Assembly (NCBI GenBank): GCA_965116495.1
Contig: OZ220696.1
Location: 1,920,001 to 1,984,000 of the forward strand
Direction: 5' to 3'
Source: Gammaproteobacteria bacterium
Lineage (GTDB): Bacteria; Pseudomonadota; Gammaproteobacteria; Eutrophobiales; Eutrophobiaceae
Length of the DNA stretch: 64,000 bases
Position 1 is the stretch's first letter. Every line of letters begins with the position of its first letter. The notes under the pieces were generated by a model. It worked only from the letters and a program-made list of their open reading frames with translations, did no database searches and had not been told where the DNA came from. This document shows, in pieces, positions 25,299 to 37,706 of this stretch. A program made the position numbers and the translations under genes.

Positions 25299-25337
25299 TT
25301 GTCATACTGACGTAAGATCGTCATATCGGCGTTGTTC

Positions 25338-25364
25338 GTCATACCGGTGCAAGCCGGTATCCAG
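25338..25364. repeat. GTCA-type REP-like hairpin
   Basis: GTCATACCGG-TGCAAG-CCGGTATCCAG, with an ATACCGG/CCGGTAT stem. Confidence 0.5.
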
Positions 25365-25399
25365 AAATCTGAGATACAATTCAGCTGGACTAAATATTT

Positions 25400-25456
25400 G
25401 GGCCTGTAGCGGGGCCGCATGGCGGCAAGGTTAGAGCAGGGCAACCCGCCAGGGTT
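25400..25456 (+). pseudogene. Degenerate copy of the tRNA-Ile 5' half interrupted by small palindromes
   Basis: GGGCCTGTAGC (25400-25410) and GGTTAGAGCAG (25429-25439) are identical to the tRNA 5' exon. GCCGC-ATG-GCGGC lies between them and AACCC-GCCA-GGGTT follows. Confidence 0.6.
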
Positions 25457-25498
25457 ACGTGTATGATCTGCCGCAATATATTTAATTTGTAATAGTTT

Positions 25499-25821
25499 GG
25501 GCCTGTAGCTCAGTTGGTTAGAGCAGTGGACTCATCAAAAATGGTGCGTTCATATCGAAAGATATGAAATGAACGGGATGAATTCAGGGAAACCTTAACC
25601 CGCCTGCCCACCAGGACAGGAGGAATGGCAACCCTGAGCCAAGCCGGGGGTACACCCCCGGAAGGTGCAGAGACTACCTGGGAACTGAAGTGTTCTTAAT
25701 ATCAGGCTAGAGCGTCCCGTACCCTAACATTTGGTTGAGGGTAGTGAGATAGTCCGCTCCTTTTAGAAATAAAAGGATAAAGTGAATCCATTGGTCGTAG
25801 GTTCGAGTCCTACCGGGCCCA
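25499..25821 (+). tRNA. tRNA-Ile2 (anticodon CAT), split by a group I intron; exons 25499-25535 and 25785-25821
   Basis: Joined exons fold into a cloverleaf: acceptor GGGCCTG/CGGGCCC, D arm GCTC/GAGC, anticodon arm GTGGA-CTCATAA-TCCAT, T arm GTAGG-TTCGAGT-CCTAC. Ile2 rather than Met is inferred from the usual position downstream of rpoD. The 3' end reads ACCG, so CCA is not fully encoded. Confidence 0.92.
25536..25784 (+). ncRNA. Group I self-splicing intron (IC3-like), 249 nt, no ORF
   Basis: P1 CAT/CA-AAAA-TG-GTG with a U.G splice-site wobble; P2 TTCATATC-GAAA-GATATGAA; P3 ACGGGATG/CGTCCCGT; P AATTCAGGGAAA; Q AACCCTGAGC; R GTGCAGAGACTA; S GAGATAGTCC; P9 TCCTTTTA-GAAA-TAAAAGGA; terminal G at 25784. 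Confidence 0.93.
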
Positions 25822-25923
25822 CCGGATAACGTTGTTATGCCTTCGCCCTACAAGTCCTGGACCAGGCGAAAGCCCAGGTAAGCGTCCCTCATTCCTGCGA
25901 CGGGTTGTTATCCGGAACCGTTC

Positions 25924-28469: not shown

Positions 28470-29609
28470 ATGACTTCAGAATCAGGCACATCCGCCGGCT
28501 TATCGGAGCCCCCCGTTCTGGTCACCGGCTCTGCCGGGCACGTAGGCGCCAACCTCGTGCGCAGGCTGCTCGACGACGGCATCCGGGTACGGGTGTTGCT
28601 GAGACACGAGGACAACAACGAGGCATTGGAAGGACTCGAAGTCGAACGCACGTTTGCTGACATCCGGGATCTGGATGCCACCCGGCGCGCACTGGAAGGC
28701 TGCCAGGGCGTTTATCACGTAGCAGCCAAGATCTCAACCATCGAAGGCAACCACGCCCATCGCCGCGAAGTATTCGAGTGCAATGTCCTCGGTACCCGCA
28801 ACGTGCTGCAGGCTGCGCGGGAGGCGGAGGCCGGCCGGGTGGTGGTGACGGGATCATTCAGCGCGGTCGGTTATGACCTGGATGACCCGTCGGCGCCCAG
28901 TGACGAGACCATGCAGTTCTACCCCATGGAACGCACGATGCCCTACGAGCGCAGCAAGACACTGGTCGAGCATGAATGCTGGCGCGCCGCGGCAATGGGG
29001 CAGGATGTCATTGTCGCCACCTGTTGTGCCGTAATCGGGAGCGCCGATTTTTTCCCCTCGCGCCTGGGCAGGACCTTGTGCGACTACACCAACGGCAAGC
29101 TCCGTGCTTACGTGGATGGCGGTTTCGAGTTCGTCGCGGCGCGGGACATCGTCGAAGGACACCTGTTGTGCATGCGCCATGGACGCCCGGGCGAAAAGTA
29201 CATCTTCAGCAGCGAGTACAAAACCATTTCCGAGATCCTGGACCTGTACGAGGAGGTCTCGGGCATCCCGCGACCGCGCAGGCGGATACCGATCCCGATG
29301 ATGCTCGTCTTCTCGGAGGTGGCGAGCTTTTACCTGAGCCGGTTTCACCCGGGTTTCAACCAGCGTTTCACCCCTGGCGCCATCCGCCTGTTGAAAAAGT
29401 GCCGCCACGCCAACATCGACAAGGCGAAACGGGATCTGGGCTACCAGCCCACCAGTATCCGCGCCGCGGTGCACGAGGCCTATGCGTTCCACTACCAGCG
29501 CAACGCGATCAGGAACCCGCGCGCGAAACGCCCGTACGTTGACGCCGTGAGTCAGCCGGAAACTCTCAATCCGGGCCAGGGTATCCAGGTATCTACCGAA
29601 GGGGCTTGA
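28470..29609 (+). CDS. 3beta-hydroxysteroid dehydrogenase/decarboxylase-like extended SDR (SdmB-like)
   Basis: TGSAGHVG, YHVAA and YERSK. The sterol function is inferred from cluster context. Confidence 0.72.
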   Translation: MTSESGTSAGLSEPPVLVTGSAGHVGANLVRRLLDDGIRVRVLLRHEDNNEALEGLEVERTFADIRDLDATRRALEGCQGVYHVAAKISTIEGNHAHRREVFECNVLGTRNVLQAAREAEAGRVVVTGSFSAVGYDLDDPSAPSDETMQFYPMERTMPYERSKTLVEHECWRAAAMGQDVIVATCCAVIGSADFFPSRLGRTLCDYTNGKLRAYVDGGFEFVAARDIVEGHLLCMRHGRPGEKYIFSSEYKTISEILDLYEEVSGIPRPRRRIPIPMMLVFSEVASFYLSRFHPGFNQRFTPGAIRLLKKCRHANIDKAKRDLGYQPTSIRAAVHEAYAFHYQRNAIRNPRAKRPYVDAVSQPETLNPGQGIQVSTEGA

Positions 29610-29610
29610 T

Positions 29611-30696
29611 ATGAACCCGGCATCATGTGCGCCACCCGGCTTCGATGAAGCCCGCACCCTGCGCCAGCAGGCGCGGGCCGCGGGCATGGACCCGGATTAC
29701 TGGTACGCGGTCGAGGAAGTGCGCCGGGTTAAACCGGAGACCGTGGTCGAGATTGTTTTCTGGAAGCGTTCCATAGCCCTGTACCGGGCGAAAGACGGCT
29801 CGTTTCACGCTATGGATAACCGCTGTGCGCACCGGCAACTCAAACTTTCCCTGGGCGATGTGCAGGGTTGCCGGCTGGTGTGCGCCTACCATGGCTGGGA
29901 GTATGATGAAAACGGGGTCCCCTACAGCCGGTCCGGGCAGGGCCTCAGGAACCTCGCGCTGAGGACCTATCCCATACAGGTCCGCTACGGCCTGGTCTGG
30001 CTGTTTCCCGGGGATCCGGAGCGGGCGCGGCAGCGCGAAATCCCGGATATTCCTGAACTCGAAGGCCCATCCCGGTGGGCCTGTGTACCGCTGAGCTTCA
30101 CCTGGTCAGCGCACCACTCGATGGTGATCGACAACGTCAGCGACTTCACCCACGCCCACCTGCACCGCCGCTACCGCCCCTTTGACGATGCCACCCTCAC
30201 CCGCTGCGAGACCGACGGCGACAACGTGCATCTCGCCTACGACACGCAAGTCGGGCGCGGGCCCGTCTCCAGGCTGTTCGTCGACCACAACCGTATCGAC
30301 ACCAACCACATGGAGCTTTGCTACCAGTACCCCTACCAGTGGTCGAATACCGATGACGAGATAAAACACTGGCTGTTTGTGCTACCCATCGATGAACGCA
30401 CCACCCGGGCGTTTTTCCTGTTCTACTTCCGGTCGCTGAAAATCCCCGTTCTGCCGGTGAGGATCCCCCGGTTCGCCATGACCACGGTTATGAAGATTTC
30501 GAACCGCATGCTTATCGGCCCGTTACTCAGCCAGGACGGCGTTGCGGTCGAGGCGGAGCAGCAGGGGTACGAGAGGCACTGGGATGCCCCTCCCTTCGAG
30601 TTCAACCCGGTCGTCAAGGCTTTTCAGGATGTGACCGTGCGCAAGTGGCGGGAACACCTGGCGCGCACAAACGGGAGCGGTGATGCCGGGGCCTGA
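29611..30696 (+). CDS. Rieske oxygenase, putative sterol C-4 methyl oxidase (SdmA-like)
   Basis: CAHR...CAYH and DNVSDFTHAHLH; starts 1 bp after the SDR stop, inside the sterol cluster. Confidence 0.72.
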   Translation: MNPASCAPPGFDEARTLRQQARAAGMDPDYWYAVEEVRRVKPETVVEIVFWKRSIALYRAKDGSFHAMDNRCAHRQLKLSLGDVQGCRLVCAYHGWEYDENGVPYSRSGQGLRNLALRTYPIQVRYGLVWLFPGDPERARQREIPDIPELEGPSRWACVPLSFTWSAHHSMVIDNVSDFTHAHLHRRYRPFDDATLTRCETDGDNVHLAYDTQVGRGPVSRLFVDHNRIDTNHMELCYQYPYQWSNTDDEIKHWLFVLPIDERTTRAFFLFYFRSLKIPVLPVRIPRFAMTTVMKISNRMLIGPLLSQDGVAVEAEQQGYERHWDAPPFEFNPVVKAFQDVTVRKWREHLARTNGSGDAGA

Positions 30697-31783
30697 GCCG
30701 CACTTTCTGTTGTCCGCGCTGTCCGGCGCCGCCCTGCTCAAGGCGGCGGCTATGCTGCTGGTGTTTACCGGCGGGTTGTTCCTGGGTTCCATGCTGCTGC
30801 CCGGACGCCGGATTGCCGGGACGGACCTGGAGGGAACACCACACGAATACAGGCTCAACGGCCTCGCCCTGTTCCTGGCAACCGTGATTGCGGCAGGTCT
30901 CGTCCAGGTCTCCGGCTGGTTCTCACTTTCCACGTTGTATACCCACTTTGCCGCCTTGTTCGTGGCGGCCAACGTACTTGCATTTGCGCTTGCCGCCTGG
31001 CTGTATTACCGGGCCGCCCTGACCCGGGACTCAGCGCCGGGAATCCGGCCGAGCTTCTTCTATGGCGTGGAGTTCAATCCAACCGTGCTCGGGGTGGATT
31101 TGAAGCTTTTCAGCTACCGCCCGTCCCTCATCGGCCTGGCGCTGTTCAACGCATCGTTCGCCGTAGTGCAATACGAGACCTACGGCGGGCTGACCCTGGC
31201 AATGGCGCTGTACCAGGTCTTCACCTTCTGCTACGTGCTCAACTACTTCCAGTTCGAATACGGCATGACCCACACCTGGGACATGGTCAGCGAGCGCTTC
31301 GGCTGGATGCTGATCTGGGGGGACTACGTGCTGGTGCCGTTTTTCTATTGTCTCGCCGGCTGGTGGCTGGTCCACGCACAGCAACCGCTGTCTCTAATCG
31401 CCACCGCGGCGATCGTCATGTTGTTCATCATTGGCTTCTGGCTGTTCCGCGGCGCCAACGAGCAAAAACACCGCTTCAAGCGCAATCCCGGCGTGTCGAT
31501 CTGGGGACAACCCGCCCGGTCGCTGGACGGGCGCCTGCTGGTCTCCGGATTCTGGGGGATCGGACGGCATCTCAACTATACCGGTGAGATCTGCATCTAC
31601 CTCGCGTTCGCCCTCACCACGGGGTTCGGATCCTGGGTGCCTTACCTGTTGCCCGCGTGGCTGGCGCTCCTGTTGTGGCATCGCTCAAAACGTGACGATC
31701 GCCGCTGCCGCGCCAAGTACGGCGAACTGTGGGGACGCTACACGCAGCGGGTGCGGTATTCAATGCTGCCGTATGTCTACTAA
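30680..31783 (+). CDS. ERG4/ERG24 family sterol reductase (probable delta14 reductase)
   Basis: FYGVEFNP, ERFGWMLIWGD, LLVSGFWGIGRHLNYTGE and RDDRRCRAKYG; multi-transmembrane protein. Confidence 0.9.
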   Translation: MMPGPEPHFLLSALSGAALLKAAAMLLVFTGGLFLGSMLLPGRRIAGTDLEGTPHEYRLNGLALFLATVIAAGLVQVSGWFSLSTLYTHFAALFVAANVLAFALAAWLYYRAALTRDSAPGIRPSFFYGVEFNPTVLGVDLKLFSYRPSLIGLALFNASFAVVQYETYGGLTLAMALYQVFTFCYVLNYFQFEYGMTHTWDMVSERFGWMLIWGDYVLVPFFYCLAGWWLVHAQQPLSLIATAAIVMLFIIGFWLFRGANEQKHRFKRNPGVSIWGQPARSLDGRLLVSGFWGIGRHLNYTGEICIYLAFALTTGFGSWVPYLLPAWLALLLWHRSKRDDRRCRAKYGELWGRYTQRVRYSMLPYVY

Positions 31784-31789
31784 CCCGCA

Positions 31790-33199
31790 ATGTCACAGCA
31801 ATCCGACAGCGTAGCCAGCCTGCATTCGGTGCAACCCCCGCCGCGGGCGGCAACAGCCGTTCCCTTGATCGGGGGCGGATGGCCGTTAATCGGCCACCTG
31901 CCGGGCTTCCTGAAGGATCCGGTCTCGATGTTGAGCCGCGGCTGGCGCGAACAGGGTGAACTCGTCCGGTTCCGTATCGGTCCCCGTAATTTTGTCCTGT
32001 TCACCGGACCCGAGGCCCACGACTTTTTCTTCAGGGCGCCTGAGGATCAGCTGAACGCCAAAGCCGTCTACCAGTTTACGGTACCCATCTTCGGACGCGG
32101 CGTGGCATACGACGTCGCCCCCGCGATCATGGCCGAGCAGCTTGAGTTCCTGTACCCGGCGCTGCGCGAATCCGCGATGAACAGGTTCGCCCGCATCATG
32201 TTCGATGAGACGGACCGCTTCGCCGACTCTCTTGGCGAGGAAGGAGAAATCGACCTGCCGACGGCGATGAACGAACTCACCGTCAACATCGCCAGCCGCT
32301 GCCTCATCGGGGAGGAAGTCCGGGAGCAGGTGGACTCGGGTTTTGCCGATGCTTACCACAACCTGCAAAACGGCATCAACACCCTGGGATTTTTTCTCCC
32401 CAGGCTTCCTGTCGCAGCGCATCGAAGCCGCGACCGGGCCCGGCAAAAAGTGGCCGAGATTTTCAGCCGGGTCATGGCGGAACGCCGGCGCGCCGGGGCC
32501 CGTCCCGACGATTTCATGCAGACGCTCATGGACGCCCGTTACAAGGATGGCCGCGCCTTGAGCGACGACGAGATTACCGGGATCCTGCTGACGGTGTTGT
32601 TCGCGGGCCAGCACACGAGCGCGGTGCTGTCAACCTGGACCGGCCTGGAACTCGCGAGAGAATCGTCATACCTGGCGCTGATAAGGGACGAAATGCAGGA
32701 CGTCTACCGCGAGGAAGGAACCATGGGCCTGGCGAGCCTGAAGCGGCAGGTGGCGCTGGAACACGCCGTGCGTGAGAACGAACGGCTGCACCCGCCGCTG
32801 ATCATGCTGATTCGCAAGGTGCTCAAAGACGTGGAATACCGGGGATATACCATCCCTGCAGGCACCCTGGCACTGGTATCGCCGGCGGTCTCGCACCGGC
32901 TGCCGCACTTATTTCACGACCCGGACCGGTTCTATCCGCAGCGTTTTGCCGCGCCCGCCAGCGAAGACAAACAACACCACTACGCACTGATCGGTTTCGG
33001 CGGCGGTAAACACCGGTGCATGGGTAAGAATTTCGCCATCATGCAACTGAAAGCGATCTGGTCTGTGCTGCTCGACCGCTTCGATGTTCATCTCGACACG
33101 GCATTTCCTGCGCCGAATTACGGCAGCTGGGTGACCGGACCGCAGGAGCCTTGCCGGCTCCGCTACCGGCGCCGCACACAGGCAAGCGTGTTCCGGTGA
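31790..33199 (+). CDS. cyp51: Cytochrome P450 CYP51 (sterol 14alpha-demethylase)
   Basis: YQFTVPIFGRGVAYD (CYP51 B'/C region), LFAGQHTS I-helix, ExxR and heme motif FGGGKHRCMG. Confidence 0.9.
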   Translation: MSQQSDSVASLHSVQPPPRAATAVPLIGGGWPLIGHLPGFLKDPVSMLSRGWREQGELVRFRIGPRNFVLFTGPEAHDFFFRAPEDQLNAKAVYQFTVPIFGRGVAYDVAPAIMAEQLEFLYPALRESAMNRFARIMFDETDRFADSLGEEGEIDLPTAMNELTVNIASRCLIGEEVREQVDSGFADAYHNLQNGINTLGFFLPRLPVAAHRSRDRARQKVAEIFSRVMAERRRAGARPDDFMQTLMDARYKDGRALSDDEITGILLTVLFAGQHTSAVLSTWTGLELARESSYLALIRDEMQDVYREEGTMGLASLKRQVALEHAVRENERLHPPLIMLIRKVLKDVEYRGYTIPAGTLALVSPAVSHRLPHLFHDPDRFYPQRFAAPASEDKQHHYALIGFGGGKHRCMGKNFAIMQLKAIWSVLLDRFDVHLDTAFPAPNYGSWVTGPQEPCRLRYRRRTQASVFR

Positions 33200-36100
33200 A
33201 CGGCGTCGCTCCACAACGCTGTGACGCAGCCATCGTCGGCGCGGGTCCGGTGGGCAGCCTGTGCGCGCTTGCTCACGCACGCAAAGGCGCCCGGGTGGCT
33301 CTGCTCGAGGCAAACCCCCAGGCATCCCTGCGACTGGCGGGCGAATGGCTGCACCCGCCTGCCGTGCGGATGCTGCGCGCTGTGGGTGTCGAGCTCAATG
33401 CGCAGCACGACTACCCCACCGGTAAAGGGTTCGCGGTGTTCCCTGAAGACGGTTCGGAGCCGATAATGTTCCCTTATACCGACGGGTCGCGCGGGCTGGC
33501 ATGCGAGCACAACCTGCTCGTCTCAAGTCTGCGTGAAGCTGTCAGCAACGAGCCGAATATCGACTTTATGCTGCACGCACGGGTACGTGCGGTCGAAGAC
33601 GGACGCATCACTTTTACCCGTAACGGCACCACTGAAACCGTGACTGCCACGCGTATTGTAGGCGCCGACGGGCAGGCCTCGATCGTGCGTAAATCGCTGG
33701 GTTTATCGACCAACCCGATGATCTGCTCGCAGACGGTGGGGGTCATCGTAAAAGGGGTGAGCTTGCCGCTGGAGGGTTATGGACACGTGGTGCTTGGCGG
33801 GCCGGGTCCAATCCTCATATACCGCCTGGGAGAGGATTGCGTCCGCATTATCGCCGATGTCCCGCTGGACCGCACGACCCCCCGGGACCGAATCGGTTTT
33901 TTGTCGGACTCATATTCCGGCCTGTTGCCGGAAACCCTCAGGCCTGCGTTTGTCGAAGCGCTGCGCGCTGGAGACTTCCACGTCGCGGCCAACAAGCTGA
34001 GACCGCATGTCACGTACGGCAGCCCGCACCGGGTGCTTATCGGCGATGCGGCCGGACACTACCATCCCATGACGGCGATGGGGATGACCTTCGGTTTCGG
34101 CGATGCGCTTACGCTGGCCGGCAACGGGGATTTTCACGATTTCACCACCAGGCGCTTCCGGGCAACCCGCGCGCCGGCGTTCCTCGCCATGGGGTTGTAT
34201 GAGTGCTTTGCCGATTACCGGGCCGAGGCGGTGGCGGTCAGGCATACGATCTACCGGAGCGCCCGGGCAAGTTCCGGGTACCGCGACCAGACAATCCGTT
34301 TACTCGCCTGTGAAGACACATCGATAACCCGCCTGGGTCTGGCATTTTTCACGACGGTTGCACGCACGGTTGCCGGGCAGATACCGCGCTCCTGCGACCT
34401 GCTCGCCTGGCGCCGGTTCCGCGACATCATGCGTGCGCTGGCGGTTCGTTGCGGGTGGCTCCTGCGCAGCGTCCGGCGGCTGGCCAAGGCGAGAAACGCG
34501 GGCGTGGAAATGGACGGGCGAGTATGGGACAGCCTGGCCGGTATTTTTCTCATCTCCATGCCGGCGAAAGTCCGCGCCCCCAGGCTGGTCCGCCCGAGGG
34601 AGATTGCGCCACCCGATGCGGGTCCGGCATTGCTCAGCGCGACCGAACGCCTGATAAATCTTCAGGATGAGGACGGCGGCTGGGAAGGCGAGATGGTCTG
34701 GTGTCCCATGCTCACCGCGCAATACGTACTGCTGCACCACGTTATCGGGCGGCCGCTCGAACCCGGCCGGCGCAGGAGTGTACTGCGTTTCTTCGAACGG
34801 ACCCGCCTGGCAGGAGGCTCATGGGGTTTACACGATCACTCGCCCCCCCACCTGTTTGTCACCACCCTGGTTTATGTCGCGGCGCGATTAGTCGGTGCCG
34901 AGCGGGATGATCCGTTAATCGAGCCGGCCCGGCGCTTCCTGCAGACAGAGGGGGTTACCGGTATCCCGAGCTGGGGGAAGTTCTGGCTGGCGCTGCTCAA
35001 TCTCTACGACTGGCGCGGGGTACACGCGGTGCTGCCGGAACTCTGGAGCCTGCCGCGCCGGGTCCCGTTGCATCCCTCGAACTGGTACTGCCATACCCGG
35101 CTCATTTACATGGCGATGGCGTCGATTTACCCGCACCGGTACACGGCGCCGGTCACGCCCCTGGTCTCCTCGTTACGGGAAGAGTTATATCCCCAGGGGT
35201 TTGCCAACATCGATTTTTCCGCCACACGCCATGAATTGCGGGACGCCGACCTGTATGCGCGACCCAGCGTATGGCTCCGGGCCGGCTACGAGTTTGCGCG
35301 TCTGTTCGAACGGATTCACAGCAAACGCCTGCGCTCCCGCTGCACGGAAGAGATAATCCGGCTCATCAAATGGGAACTGCAGACAACCAGCCACACGAGT
35401 ATCTCTCCGGTCAGCGGCCTGCTCAATATCCTTTCCCTGTGGCTGCGTGATCCGGACGACGCCGACGCCGGACAGGCGCTCTCGCAACTGGATGGCTGGC
35501 TCTGGGAAGACGAGGAACAGGGAGCCCGGGTCACCGGCGCGAGAAGCGCCTCCTGGGATACCGGCTTCGCTTTGCAGGCGCTGGCGGCAGTGCCCGGGCC
35601 CGGCGAAGTGGAAAACGCTTCCCTCCGGAATGGAGCCAATTTCCTGTACGAACAACAAATCGATACTAGCTTCGAAGGGTTTCGCGAGGCTTATCGTATT
35701 GACCCCAAAGGCGGCTGGTGTTTTGCCGGGGGCTGGCACGGCTGGCCGGTTACCGACTGTACCGCGGAAGCGGTGCTGGGAATTATTGCGGCCAAGGGCG
35801 AGGCCGCGGATGCAACCGTGCTCGGCGATGCGGTCCGCTTCATGTTGCGCGGCCAGAACCGCGACGGCGGTTTCGGCAGCTACGAGGCGCGCCGCACCGT
35901 GACAGGTCTCGAGTGGTTGAACCCGGCCGAGATGTTCGGCGACTCGATGACCGAACATTCCTATGTGGAGTGCACCGCGTCCTGTCTTGCGGCGTTCGCC
36001 GCCTGCAGGGAGCACTTCCCGCAAACCACGGACCAGGCGCTGACGAGCGCCATTTCACGGGGTGACGCCTGGCTGCGCCGGACCCAGGCGGTCGACGGTT

Positions 36101-36603
36101 CCTGGCGCGGTGTATGGGGCGTTCAGTTTATCTACGGCACCTTTTTCGGGATCAGGGGTCTGCTTGCCGCCGGGGCCCGGCCCGGTGATCCGGCGCTGCG
36201 CCTGGCCTGCCAGTGGCTGCTGGAGCGCCAGCGCAGGGACGGGGGTTGGGGTGAGCACCACAGCGGCTGCACGACCGGGCGCTACGTCGCACACGAGGAA
36301 AGCCAGGTCATCCAGACCGCGTGGGCATTGATTGCACTGCTGGAGGCAAGCGATCCGAACTGGAGCGCGATTTCACGGGGCGCCCGCTATCTGCTCAACG
36401 CCCGGAACGCGGACGGGTCCTGGCCAAAACAGGACATGGCCGGGGTCTTCTTCCGCACGGCGCTCCTGGATTACGTCCTGTACCGGCAGTATTTTCCCCT
36501 GCACGCACTCGGTCTCTATGAGCAGCGGCGGCTGGCCCGGGTGGATTTGACAGCCCCCGTTCCCTCCGCCGATGTGAAACTGGCTGAAGCAGCAGGTTCG
36601 TAG
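33196..36603 (+). CDS. Squalene epoxidase-oxidosqualene cyclase fusion protein
   Basis: N-terminal flavin monooxygenase (GAGPVG, RLAGEWLHP, VGADG, GDAAGHYHPMTAMGMT) and C-terminal type II triterpene cyclase (QW repeats, PSWGKFWL, YCHTR, DCTAE at 35755-35769). Start taken at GTG 33196, a GTGA overlap with the cyp51 stop. Confidence 0.9.
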   Translation: MNGVAPQRCDAAIVGAGPVGSLCALAHARKGARVALLEANPQASLRLAGEWLHPPAVRMLRAVGVELNAQHDYPTGKGFAVFPEDGSEPIMFPYTDGSRGLACEHNLLVSSLREAVSNEPNIDFMLHARVRAVEDGRITFTRNGTTETVTATRIVGADGQASIVRKSLGLSTNPMICSQTVGVIVKGVSLPLEGYGHVVLGGPGPILIYRLGEDCVRIIADVPLDRTTPRDRIGFLSDSYSGLLPETLRPAFVEALRAGDFHVAANKLRPHVTYGSPHRVLIGDAAGHYHPMTAMGMTFGFGDALTLAGNGDFHDFTTRRFRATRAPAFLAMGLYECFADYRAEAVAVRHTIYRSARASSGYRDQTIRLLACEDTSITRLGLAFFTTVARTVAGQIPRSCDLLAWRRFRDIMRALAVRCGWLLRSVRRLAKARNAGVEMDGRVWDSLAGIFLISMPAKVRAPRLVRPREIAPPDAGPALLSATERLINLQDEDGGWEGEMVWCPMLTAQYVLLHHVIGRPLEPGRRRSVLRFFERTRLAGGSWGLHDHSPPHLFVTTLVYVAARLVGAERDDPLIEPARRFLQTEGVTGIPSWGKFWLALLNLYDWRGVHAVLPELWSLPRRVPLHPSNWYCHTRLIYMAMASIYPHRYTAPVTPLVSSLREELYPQGFANIDFSATRHELRDADLYARPSVWLRAGYEFARLFERIHSKRLRSRCTEEIIRLIKWELQTTSHTSISPVSGLLNILSLWLRDPDDADAGQALSQLDGWLWEDEEQGARVTGARSASWDTGFALQALAAVPGPGEVENASLRNGANFLYEQQIDTSFEGFREAYRIDPKGGWCFAGGWHGWPVTDCTAEAVLGIIAAKGEAADATVLGDAVRFMLRGQNRDGGFGSYEARRTVTGLEWLNPAEMFGDSMTEHSYVECTASCLAAFAACREHFPQTTDQALTSAISRGDAWLRRTQAVDGSWRGVWGVQFIYGTFFGIRGLLAAGARPGDPALRLACQWLLERQRRDGGWGEHHSGCTTGRYVAHEESQVIQTAWALIALLEASDPNWSAISRGARYLLNARNADGSWPKQDMAGVFFRTALLDYVLYRQYFPLHALGLYEQRRLARVDLTAPVPSADVKLAEAAGS

Positions 36604-36680
36604 AAGCTCAATCCAGGGAGCGGCATGAAGAGAAATAATGAGATGATCTATAATAGATTACCGCTAGTGAGAGTACATTC

Positions 36681-37706
36681 ATGGCAACGCGTTTGATTAA
36701 GAATCTGGCGAGCACGGTTAACTGGCAGCATGTGGCGAAGCGCTCCAGGGGATATGTCGAGCGGTTCTCACCCACGGAACGGAAAAAACTGAAAGACGGG
36801 ACATTCGACTACATGGGGTTGACCCGGGACTACTACGACCTGGCAACCGCATTCTACGAGTACGGATGGGGGGAGTCTTTTCACTTTGCCCCGCTTTACC
36901 CGGACAAACCGTTCAAGGAGTCGATCCGGCTCCACGAGATGTACCTGGCAGACGTGCTGGACATAGAGCCGGGTATGCGGGTGCTGGATATCGGTTGCGG
37001 TATCGGCGGGCCCCTGGTCGCCATCGCCAGGCACACAAACGCCGCTATCGTCGGGCTTAACAACAACCATTCCCAGGTTGAAAAAGCGCGCGCCAGAACT
37101 GCGAATGCGAACCTGGATCCGCCGGCCGAATTTATCGTCGGTGATTTCATGCACATCGATGCGCCGGATGCGAGCTTTGACAGGGCTTATAATATCGAGG
37201 CCATGGCGCACGCCACGAGCAAGGCCGCGGCCTATGCCGAGGCCTACCGGATTCTCAAGCCCGGAGGGCTGTTCGCTTCCTACGAATGGTGTATGACTTC
37301 AAGGTTCGACCCCGCCAATGCGGACCATCAACATATAAAGCGCGAGATCATGATCGGCAATGCACTGCCCGATATCAGCACGTTTGAGGACGTTGACCGC
37401 GCGCTGGAGGAAGCCGGCTTTGAAATCCTGGTGAACGATGACTTGGCGGAGACCATCGATACCGGTGTGCCCTGGCACAAGGCGCTGGGAGCGCAGAAGT
37501 TCACGCCCCTGGATTTCCTGAAGACGCCGGTCGGGCAGCAGGTCACGGCGAAGATGCTGTGGCTGTTTGAACGCATCGGGCTGGCGCCCAGGGGTTCGCA
37601 CCAGGTCGCAACCATTCTCAACCGGGGCGCGGACGGCCTGTCGGCAGGCGGCAAACTGGGTGTCTTCACGCCCATGTATTTTACGGTGGGGCGTAAGGCG
37701 GGCTGA
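36681..37706 (+). CDS. Sterol C-24 methyltransferase (ERG6/SMT family)
   Basis: YYDLATAFYEYGWGESFHF (SMT region I), LDIGCGIGGP, IEAMAHA, LKPGG...YEW and C-terminal FTPMY. Confidence 0.9.
   Translation: MATRLIKNLASTVNWQHVAKRSRGYVERFSPTERKKLKDGTFDYMGLTRDYYDLATAFYEYGWGESFHFAPLYPDKPFKESIRLHEMYLADVLDIEPGMRVLDIGCGIGGPLVAIARHTNAAIVGLNNNHSQVEKARARTANANLDPPAEFIVGDFMHIDAPDASFDRAYNIEAMAHATSKAAAYAEAYRILKPGGLFASYEWCMTSRFDPANADHQHIKREIMIGNALPDISTFEDVDRALEEAGFEILVNDDLAETIDTGVPWHKALGAQKFTPLDFLKTPVGQQVTAKMLWLFERIGLAPRGSHQVATILNRGADGLSAGGKLGVFTPMYFTVGRKAG

Follow-up and report, generated by a model that had tools for sequence, protein, structure and literature searches.

Just past rpoD, in the 64,000-nt window analysed here (one whole stretch of the genome G000), a tRNA gene with a CAU anticodon is interrupted by 249 nt. 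This raises the questions of what the insert is, whether the decoding of AUA depends on it, how it came to this gene, and whether it is, as the first-pass annotation proposed, a larger relative of the Azoarcus tRNA-Ile intron, the minimal group I ribozyme of the textbooks.

An intact group I intron in the tRNA gene

The gene lies on the plus strand behind the order rpsU-yqeY-dnaG-rpoD, with rpoD and a sensor kinase as its flanking genes. Its 5′ exon (25499 to 25535, 37 nt) covers tRNA positions 1 to 36, equals the 5′ half of the intronless orthologue of the congener G036 and ends in CUCAU, with U36 as U(-1). The insert, which has no ORF, occupies 25536 to 25784 (249 nt, 49% GC) and ends with the omega-G at 25784. 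The 3′ exon (25785 to 25823), delimited with intronless relatives, opens at A37 with AAUCC and closes with the discriminator A at 25821 and CC, after which a G follows. Both exons are letter for letter those of the intronless G036 gene, and joined they form a regular 76-nt cloverleaf with a CAU anticodon. The insertion point falls between the anticodon U36 and A37, the site of the Ile2.5Ug class, and the junction is fixed, since 11 intronless congeners have contiguous exons. The first-pass annotation had placed the 249-nt insert between CAT and the following A, correctly to the base; its 3′ end of the gene, 25821, is the discriminator A, but the exon extends over CC to 25823. In two public runs, each from a different study (X19 and X22; X19 may be the source sample), contigs carry the intron unchanged (0 differences), which speaks against an artefact of assembly.

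The gene ends in ACC-G rather than ACCA (25821 to 25824) in G000 and in the congeners G022 and G014, and the last A must therefore be added after transcription. Two genes of the poly(A)/CCA-polymerase family are present in the G000 genome. No sigma-70 promoter or terminator consensus was found between 25250 and 25950. Directly 5′ of the tRNA, a unit of about 100 nt (25399 to 25498) starts with the first 11 bases of the tRNA, includes the 3′ strand of the D arm and has an AT-rich, TATAAT-like 3′ end. It occurs once each in G000, G003, G014 and G016, in 2.4 tandem copies with a 101-bp period in G022 (L235, 2322 to 2567) and in at least two copies in G021, and both intron-bearing and intronless genomes have it. 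A short palindromic repeat 3′ of rpoD (25324 to 25370) is REP-like, with dozens of look-alikes genome-wide. In the congener G018 (L233, G018:C2), a further copy of the tRNA, intronless and degenerate, lies about 2.5 kb away.

The insert is a genuine, intact group I intron. The covariance-model scan by which the first-pass annotation had proposed to check this assignment supports it: Rfam RF00028 matches 25526 to 25776 with 84.8 bits (gathering threshold 50; E 2.1e-21), and its alignment shows an insertion between P7 and P3. The intron folds with a z of -4.52, and none of 200 shuffles was equally stable. All the named helices (P1, P2, P3, P4-P6, P7, P8, P9 and P9.0) are present and most of them covary. 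Across 52 diverse relatives 98.0% of the cells are paired, compared with 89.6% in shuffled and 34 to 45% in slid controls, and two-sided changes were seen at 40 of the 67 pairs. The P3-P9 core, with the P3/P7 pseudoknot and the G-binding pair, is present, and the catalytic positions are all intact.

P1 (25533 to 25546; fold and covariation) pairs the exonic CAU plus CA with the guide UGGUG and places a U25535.G25544 wobble at the 5′ splice site, a U.G pair kept in all 51 rows aligned there. P2 (25549 to 25568) is a hairpin with a GAAA loop, in which all eight pairs changed on both sides. P3 joins 25574 to 25580 with 25713 to 25719 through a G-rich 5′ strand, GGGAUG, typical of the lineage (alignment and covariation), and the P4-P5-P6/P6a scaffold domain (25584 to 25666; RF00028 and covariation) is without P5abc. 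P7 pairs 25670 to 25676 with 25750 to 25755 (GAGACUA/UAGUCC); it has the bulged A and the guanosine-site G-C pair, and its six pairs are invariant in 52 sequences. P8 (25721 to 25742), recognized from its sequence, carries CCCUAAC/GAGGG, found in 28 of 123 family introns and presumably a tetraloop receptor of the IC3 type. P9.0 (25756 to 25758 with 25781 to 25783) and the P9 GAAA hairpin (25759 to 25776) complete the fold within 25756 to 25783 (fold and covariation). The guanosine-site role of P7 is established (PMC3984707, section 5, available in part). For P8, the CCC:GGG plus asymmetric-loop signature is the only part of the receptor motif that the accessible portions of the literature confirm. 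The omega-G is found in G000 and in 123 of 123 family introns, a count that is not independent because the extraction demanded G; the intronless junction provides the independent check. Thus, P1 with its GUG guide and U.G pair, the P2 and P9 GAAA hairpins, P3, P4-P6, P7, P8 and the terminal G were all found as first described.

The absence of a homing endonuclease ORF was likewise upheld: in the six frames of the intron, the longest stop-free stretch has 53 codons. For the genes beside the intron, 10 congeners were covered: a crude search for motifs in 52 ORFs lying within 1.5 kb gave no convincing endonuclease. The 23S rRNA gene of G000 contains two more group I introns (G000:C1:617058-617403 and 617438-618181, the latter in L002) of 346 and 744 nt, with 34 nt between them; the longer one codes for a LAGLIDADG protein of 160 aa (Pfam E 3.8e-26). 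Further RF00028 matches in several congeners lie apparently at the same rRNA locus.

The host tRNA and the decoding of AUA

Synteny, acceptor pairs and elimination type the host as tRNA-Ile2 and not as tRNA-Met or tRNA-fMet, in agreement with the original assignment. The E. coli tRNA-Ile(CAU) gene also lies just past rpoD, and the pairs C4-G69 and C5-G68, which we take to be TilS determinants, are common to the E. coli and G000 tRNAs. The other CAU genes of G000 have a Met-like (2006970) and an fMet-like (3851661) acceptor stem, and a third ARAGORN CAU call (2292737) is without an Rfam tRNA match. A BLAST against E. coli was discarded as a means of typing CAU tRNAs, as the orthologue's best match was the uninformative tRNA-Lys.

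The G000 genome is one contig, 99.5% complete, and among 45 ARAGORN and 45 Rfam tRNA calls and the odd extras it yielded no spare Ile2 or Ile(UAU) gene. The split gene is very likely the only Ile2 gene of the genome, the condition on which the first-pass annotation had made the dependence of AUA decoding on splicing rest. Reading of AUA via TilS is established (PMC11938285, available in part), and tilS is present in G000 (181 bits, without stops). In a crude set of ORFs about one in five Ile codons is ATA, and rpoD, dnaG and tsaD together contain 16 ATA codons. With a sole Ile2-type gene in a 99.5% complete genome that has tilS, AUA decoding very likely requires splicing of the intron, which is predicted to be self-splicing. 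By group I chemistry, exogenous G bound in P7 would attack at the P1 U.G pair, and the omega-G would then occupy the G site while the exons are joined. TilS would modify C34 of the spliced tRNA, and the CCA enzyme would finish its 3′ end. Because the C(+1)-G pair of the P1 extension takes up the space that P10 pairing with A37 would need, the 3′ site would be chosen by P9.0, the omega-G and the anticodon stem.

Public RNA-library contigs from X1, X2, X3, X11, X4 and X14, in which DNA carry-over is possible, contain intron-bearing sequence from close or more distant kin. The joined-exon form appears in one contig of X11 (depth 3.9, two differences in exon 2) and in X19 (library type not on record); these contigs are evidence neither for nor against splicing, since intronless kin share these exons. 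Elsewhere in the G000 genome are three related tRNA-like genes of about 101 nt (G000:C1:3647007-3647109, 3651462-3651562 and 3660370-3660470). They have a tRNA-Leu-like body, a very long variable arm, Rfam tRNA scores of 46 to 56 bits and the anticodon loops UUGCCAC, UUGUCAC and CCGUCAC, with GCC or GUC at the anticodon position.

The expectation that standard annotation could miss this tRNA was justified: plain ARAGORN reports no tRNA at the locus and, with introns allowed, mislabels it as tRNA-Gln(ctg).

The module between P7 and P3 and the Azoarcus-type introns

The extra stem that had been noticed at about 25677 to 25706 is a covarying P7.1-type module with exactly these limits. It consists of an outer stem CCUG/CAGG, an inner 5-bp stem and a 3′ UAAUNN bulge, as indicated by covariation and relatives. 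It is a single interrupted hairpin followed by six unpaired nucleotides before P3, without a second hairpin P7.2. By folding energy alone the module is no better than shuffles (z 0.09); its pairing in relatives is 99.8%, with 56 double changes, which 0 of 500 shuffles matched. The inner stem supplies most of this covariation signal; in the outer stem, covariation is confined to differences between sub-lineages, with CCUG/CAGG in 109 and GCGG/CYGC in 12 introns (121 of 129 distinct introns), counts that are not frequencies because many introns were retrieved with a pattern that requires the bulge. The bulge is UAAUAU in G000 and UAAUNA in most relatives (UAAUAU in 2 of 121), and the module is shortened in the related tRNA-Lys intron L179. 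By analogy with the P7.1/7.2 extension of the phage td intron, the module may pack on P3/P7/P8 as a brace, a less-supported suggestion.

The frequency of such introns was surveyed in 401 genomes across the class with a 3′-junction pattern that is blind to the module; it matched in 28 genomes, and a control pattern in none. The P7-P3 insert is present in 28 of 28 complete introns, 26 of them in tRNA-Ile2 and two in tRNA-Lys(CUU), one of the Lys introns having a shortened module. The rarity implied by the first-pass annotation is not supported: in the class sample the module-bearing type is the common one at this site, and the G000 intron is an ordinary member of a widespread lineage at a classical site. 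Introns identical to those of two congeners in records named Gammaproteobacteria support the gammaproteobacterial host. With the module pattern, at least 119 stretches matched in the GTDB collection, which were classed by exon patterns, the ARAGORN junction calls being too noisy. Among the matches listed, 88 are complete CAU 36/37 introns (69 from records named Gammaproteobacteria), and the other 31 include truncated copies and introns in tRNA-Leu, other tRNAs, apparent tmRNAs and other genes. In the related tRNA-Lys(CUU) intron (L017/L175), the guide is GAG instead of GUG, as CUU requires.

In viruses, at least 122 stretches matched the module pattern, with one CAU-tRNA 36/37 intron among the matches listed, and the best viral BLAST matches to the intron had 75 to 82% identity over 94 to 147 nt. 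INPHARED gave 42 partial matches, and PLSDB two matches to exons only. On the grounds of the single same-site intron and of these best identities, a phage donor was rejected. A different, module-less group I intron occurs at position 33/34 of a CAU tRNA (L035, G058:C46), and one tRNA type thus hosts at least three intron kinds in the class. Two orphan pieces were also seen: a 3′ half that starts inside P7.1, with exon 2 attached (L191 7089-7257, G038:C149) and a P6-P7 piece (L037 401-496, G016:C45). The former had been considered as a long insert in P7.1, which was rejected, as it is only a 3′ intron fragment with exon 2. The two fragments may be scars of elements recombining inside the intron.

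For the comparison with Azoarcus, the intron L194, which we take by its 205-nt length and its sequence to be of the BH72 type, and five kin served as stand-ins. These six compact introns (204 to 214 nt, without the module) were found in a sample of the Azonexus family, where 10 of 251 genomes matched and the other four carry the insert. A length of 205 nt is given for the Azoarcus BH72 intron (PMC13168695, available in part). The P3 signature is UCAAA in 6 of 6 compact introns versus GG[AG]UGAA in 123 of 123 others. The receptors of the compact introns are presumably of the 11-nt type in five of the six. Core identity to G000 over 79 columns is 0.67 to 0.73 for the Azoarcus type and 0.73 to 0.89 for module-bearing introns in other host genes, in a set that left out L197, L046, L093 and L095 (mis-anchored) and L047 and L123 (not anchored). 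A model of the family scores the former at 59 to 79 bits and module-bearing introns elsewhere at 86 to 199 bits, the module itself being part of the gap.

In the cleanest tree (54 rows), 16 module-less Ile2.5, Leu, Arg and Ile2.2 introns form one group (99/92) with G000 outside it, and the Azoarcus-type introns group with two Leu introns (99/96). A single Ile2.5 clade was rejected by the AU test in four of five runs: p was 0.0017 with P3 and 0.015 without P3 for the cleanest tree, and 0.039, 0.009 and 0.092 in earlier runs, the last being a run without P3 that had two mis-anchored rows. The tree with p 0.039 had 14 of 59 rows thinned out, those with p 0.009 and 0.092 were without L380 and L381 (not anchored), and the cleanest tree was without L378 and L379 (mis-anchored). 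Without P3, support for the module-less clade is 59/0. The lineage test uses 70 to 79 hand-anchored, partly paired columns and an unrooted tree, and the module-less clade could derive from a module-bearing intron by loss, since the tree has no root.

The shared site and CAU/GUG pairing of the Azoarcus class were borne out, but the description as a "larger relative" was not: the module is absent there, the P3 signature and receptors are different, and the clade is separate. The G000 intron is likely a member of a lineage that carries P7.1 and is separate from the Azoarcus IC3 intron. That two separate intron lineages reached the tRNA-Ile2 site we hold to be probable and no more than that, because the tree is unrooted and built on few, paired columns. 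On the tested features, the lineage fits neither IC3 nor IA cleanly.

History of the locus and comparison with known introns

Of the 23 genomes of the genus, the intron is present in 11, the exons are contiguous in another 11, and one genome, 83% complete, has no match. In 14 genomes of other genera of the family, no intron-length match was found, and contiguous exons were confirmed in nine. On an rpoB tree of 28 genomes, polarised with a family outgroup (G016 and G029 are without an rpoB match), this distribution takes three changes: a gain at the base of the genus, a loss in a crown clade and a loss in G014. Both losses are precise. Set against four outgroups, the introns of these 11 genomes group as a single clade (100/99).

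Within the genus, the G000 intron is 98.8% identical to that of G022 and 98.4% to that of G015, with rpoB at 85%, and 92% identical to those of its rpoB sisters G001 and G019, with rpoB at 88%. P2 and the rapidly evolving loop of P5 do not vary among G000, G022, G015 and G016 and are different in G001/G019. Between G000 and G022, the 20 kb of core upstream are 77 to 84% identical, and identity rises from about 80 to 90% to 96 to 100% at the tRNA. From there on, about 24 kb are collinear at 95 to 97%, with further pieces at 93 to 95% up to 59975. This accessory block starts at the 3′ end of the tRNA (25824 to 49442) and includes a two-component hybrid, a sterol-type cluster and more. Since the intron is 98.8% identical to that of a distant congener and both share the downstream island of about 24 kb, intron and locus likely moved together. 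G000 yielded no duplicate of the tRNA 3′ end (attR) of 14 nt or longer and no integrase for the island; with neither of these nor an endonuclease, recombination and its direction are inferred. The G000 copy likely came by exchange of the tRNA locus and its downstream island, without a homing endonuclease. Rudi is said, going by a title of 2002, to have described recombination of a whole tRNA-Leu locus.

The sterol-type cluster in the island (28470 to 37706) encodes a 3-beta-HSD-like SDR, a Rieske oxygenase, an ERG4/ERG24 reductase, a cytochrome P450, a 1150-aa squalene epoxidase-cyclase fusion and a sterol methyltransferase, which are 95 to 98% identical in G022 where compared.

Purely vertical descent within the genus, with slow RNA evolution behind the near identity to G022 and an island gained separately, would agree with the single clade of the 11 introns, with a presence pattern of one gain and two losses and with the poor resolution of the within-genus intron tree. 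It is nevertheless rather unlikely, given that the P5 loop and P2 group G000 with G022, G015 and G016 against its rpoB sisters and that the identity to G022 jumps at the tRNA itself; it touches, moreover, only the last step of the history of the intron. An older step is at stake if the intron and the Azoarcus Ile2 intron are directly related, both descended from one old 36/37 insertion, with P7.1 gained here or lost in Azoarcus. The two share the site, the CAU/GUG pairing, GNRA loops on P2 and P9 and an IC3-like P4-P7 sequence, both types occupy the site within one family sample (six and four of ten), and the starred UCAGG/UGCGG split of the core tree does not separate them. The four classical tRNA classes, Ile2.5Ug included, are all marked IC3 in GISSD (Williams 2020, bioRxiv 10.1101/2020.01.27.920355). 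Yet the Azoarcus type nests among Leu(UAA), Arg and Ile2.2 introns, joining two Leu introns at 99/96, the AU test rejects one Ile2.5 clade in all but one run, and P3 signature and receptors differ, which makes this descent improbable.

Function could be doubted as well, if the intron were inactive or protein-dependent, or the gene a relic with another tRNA reading AUA. No spliced product in the public RNA-library contigs is assignable to the organism, the module bulge departs from the usual UAAUNA (2 of 121), and the genome holds the three odd tRNA-like genes. However, with every catalytic position intact, tilS intact and no other AUA reader found, the odd genes having GCC or GUC, we regard this as very improbable. 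We are fairly confident that tRNA-Ile2 is split here by a predicted self-splicing intron of a P7.1 lineage apart from that of Azoarcus, whose copy arrived by exchange of the locus. A wider reading, which we advance tentatively and with rather less than even confidence, is that separate ribozyme lineages colonised the site at least twice and that the one found here, an unclassified subgroup with an IC3-like core and a conserved P7.1 brace, is the dominant one at the site in uncultured Gammaproteobacteria. By guide change it would be re-targeted to tRNA-Lys, tRNA-Leu, other CAU tRNAs, tmRNA and phage genes, and it would cross species without an endonuclease via tRNA-anchored islands.

The site has long been known, and the modestly new part is the lineage and its mobility. 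Ile2.5Ug is one of four "classical" intron classes that together make up 3453 of 5292 introns, and the G000 intron resembles this class in its tRNA-Ile2 host, in an insertion point directly behind the third base of the anticodon, in U(-1) and in the omega-G (Williams 2020). The main text of that study mentions neither a P7-P3 insert nor a second lineage; its table and alignment may already include this one. In mostly non-subscription literature we found no description of a P7.1-bearing tRNA-Ile2 intron lineage, a matter of novelty on which the Williams tables and supplements may bear. Acidovorax and Burkholderia provide a parallel, in that a "missing" Ile2 gene proved to be one with an undetected group I intron, as here; unlike here, the accessible part of that report describes no structure or lineage (tRNAscan-SE 2.0, PMC8450103). 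In the class sample, at least 7% of the genomes (28 of 401) carry a tRNA interrupted at this position, which standard annotation tools can overlook or misname. According to the section available of a 2014 review, there is little evidence for intron movement between bacterial species (PMC3984707, section 11), and the G000/G022 locus is a concrete candidate for such movement without an endonuclease. A 2025 study, available in part, argues for revising the subgroup scheme where introns of bacteria and phages are concerned (PMC11878797).

The G000 and Azoarcus introns are alike in site, CAU/GUG P1, P2, P4-P6 without P5abc, P7 sequence, GNRA loops on P2 and P9, P9.0 and the absence of an ORF. They differ in length (249 versus 205 nt), in the 30-nt P7-P3 module, absent in 6 of 6 Azoarcus-type introns, in the P3 GGGAUG/CGUCCC signature, in having C rather than A at +1, and in the P5 and P8 receptors. 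The module and the P3 signature presumably resemble those of IA3 introns. The commoner intron at the Azoarcus site, with its different build and conserved module, thus forms with the Azoarcus intron a natural pair for testing P7.1 in folding and catalysis. An extension between P7 and P3, as in G000, is also known from the phage T4 td intron (IA2) and from IA3 rRNA introns (PMC4498298, PMC3984707 and PMC6125680, all available in part), and IC3 ribozymes have been contrasted with td on account of its P7.1/7.2 extension at this place (PMC4498298, in the part available). According to the accessible text of these sources, td has two hairpins, P7.1 and P7.2, whereas the G000 intron has one interrupted hairpin set on an IC3-like core in a tRNA.
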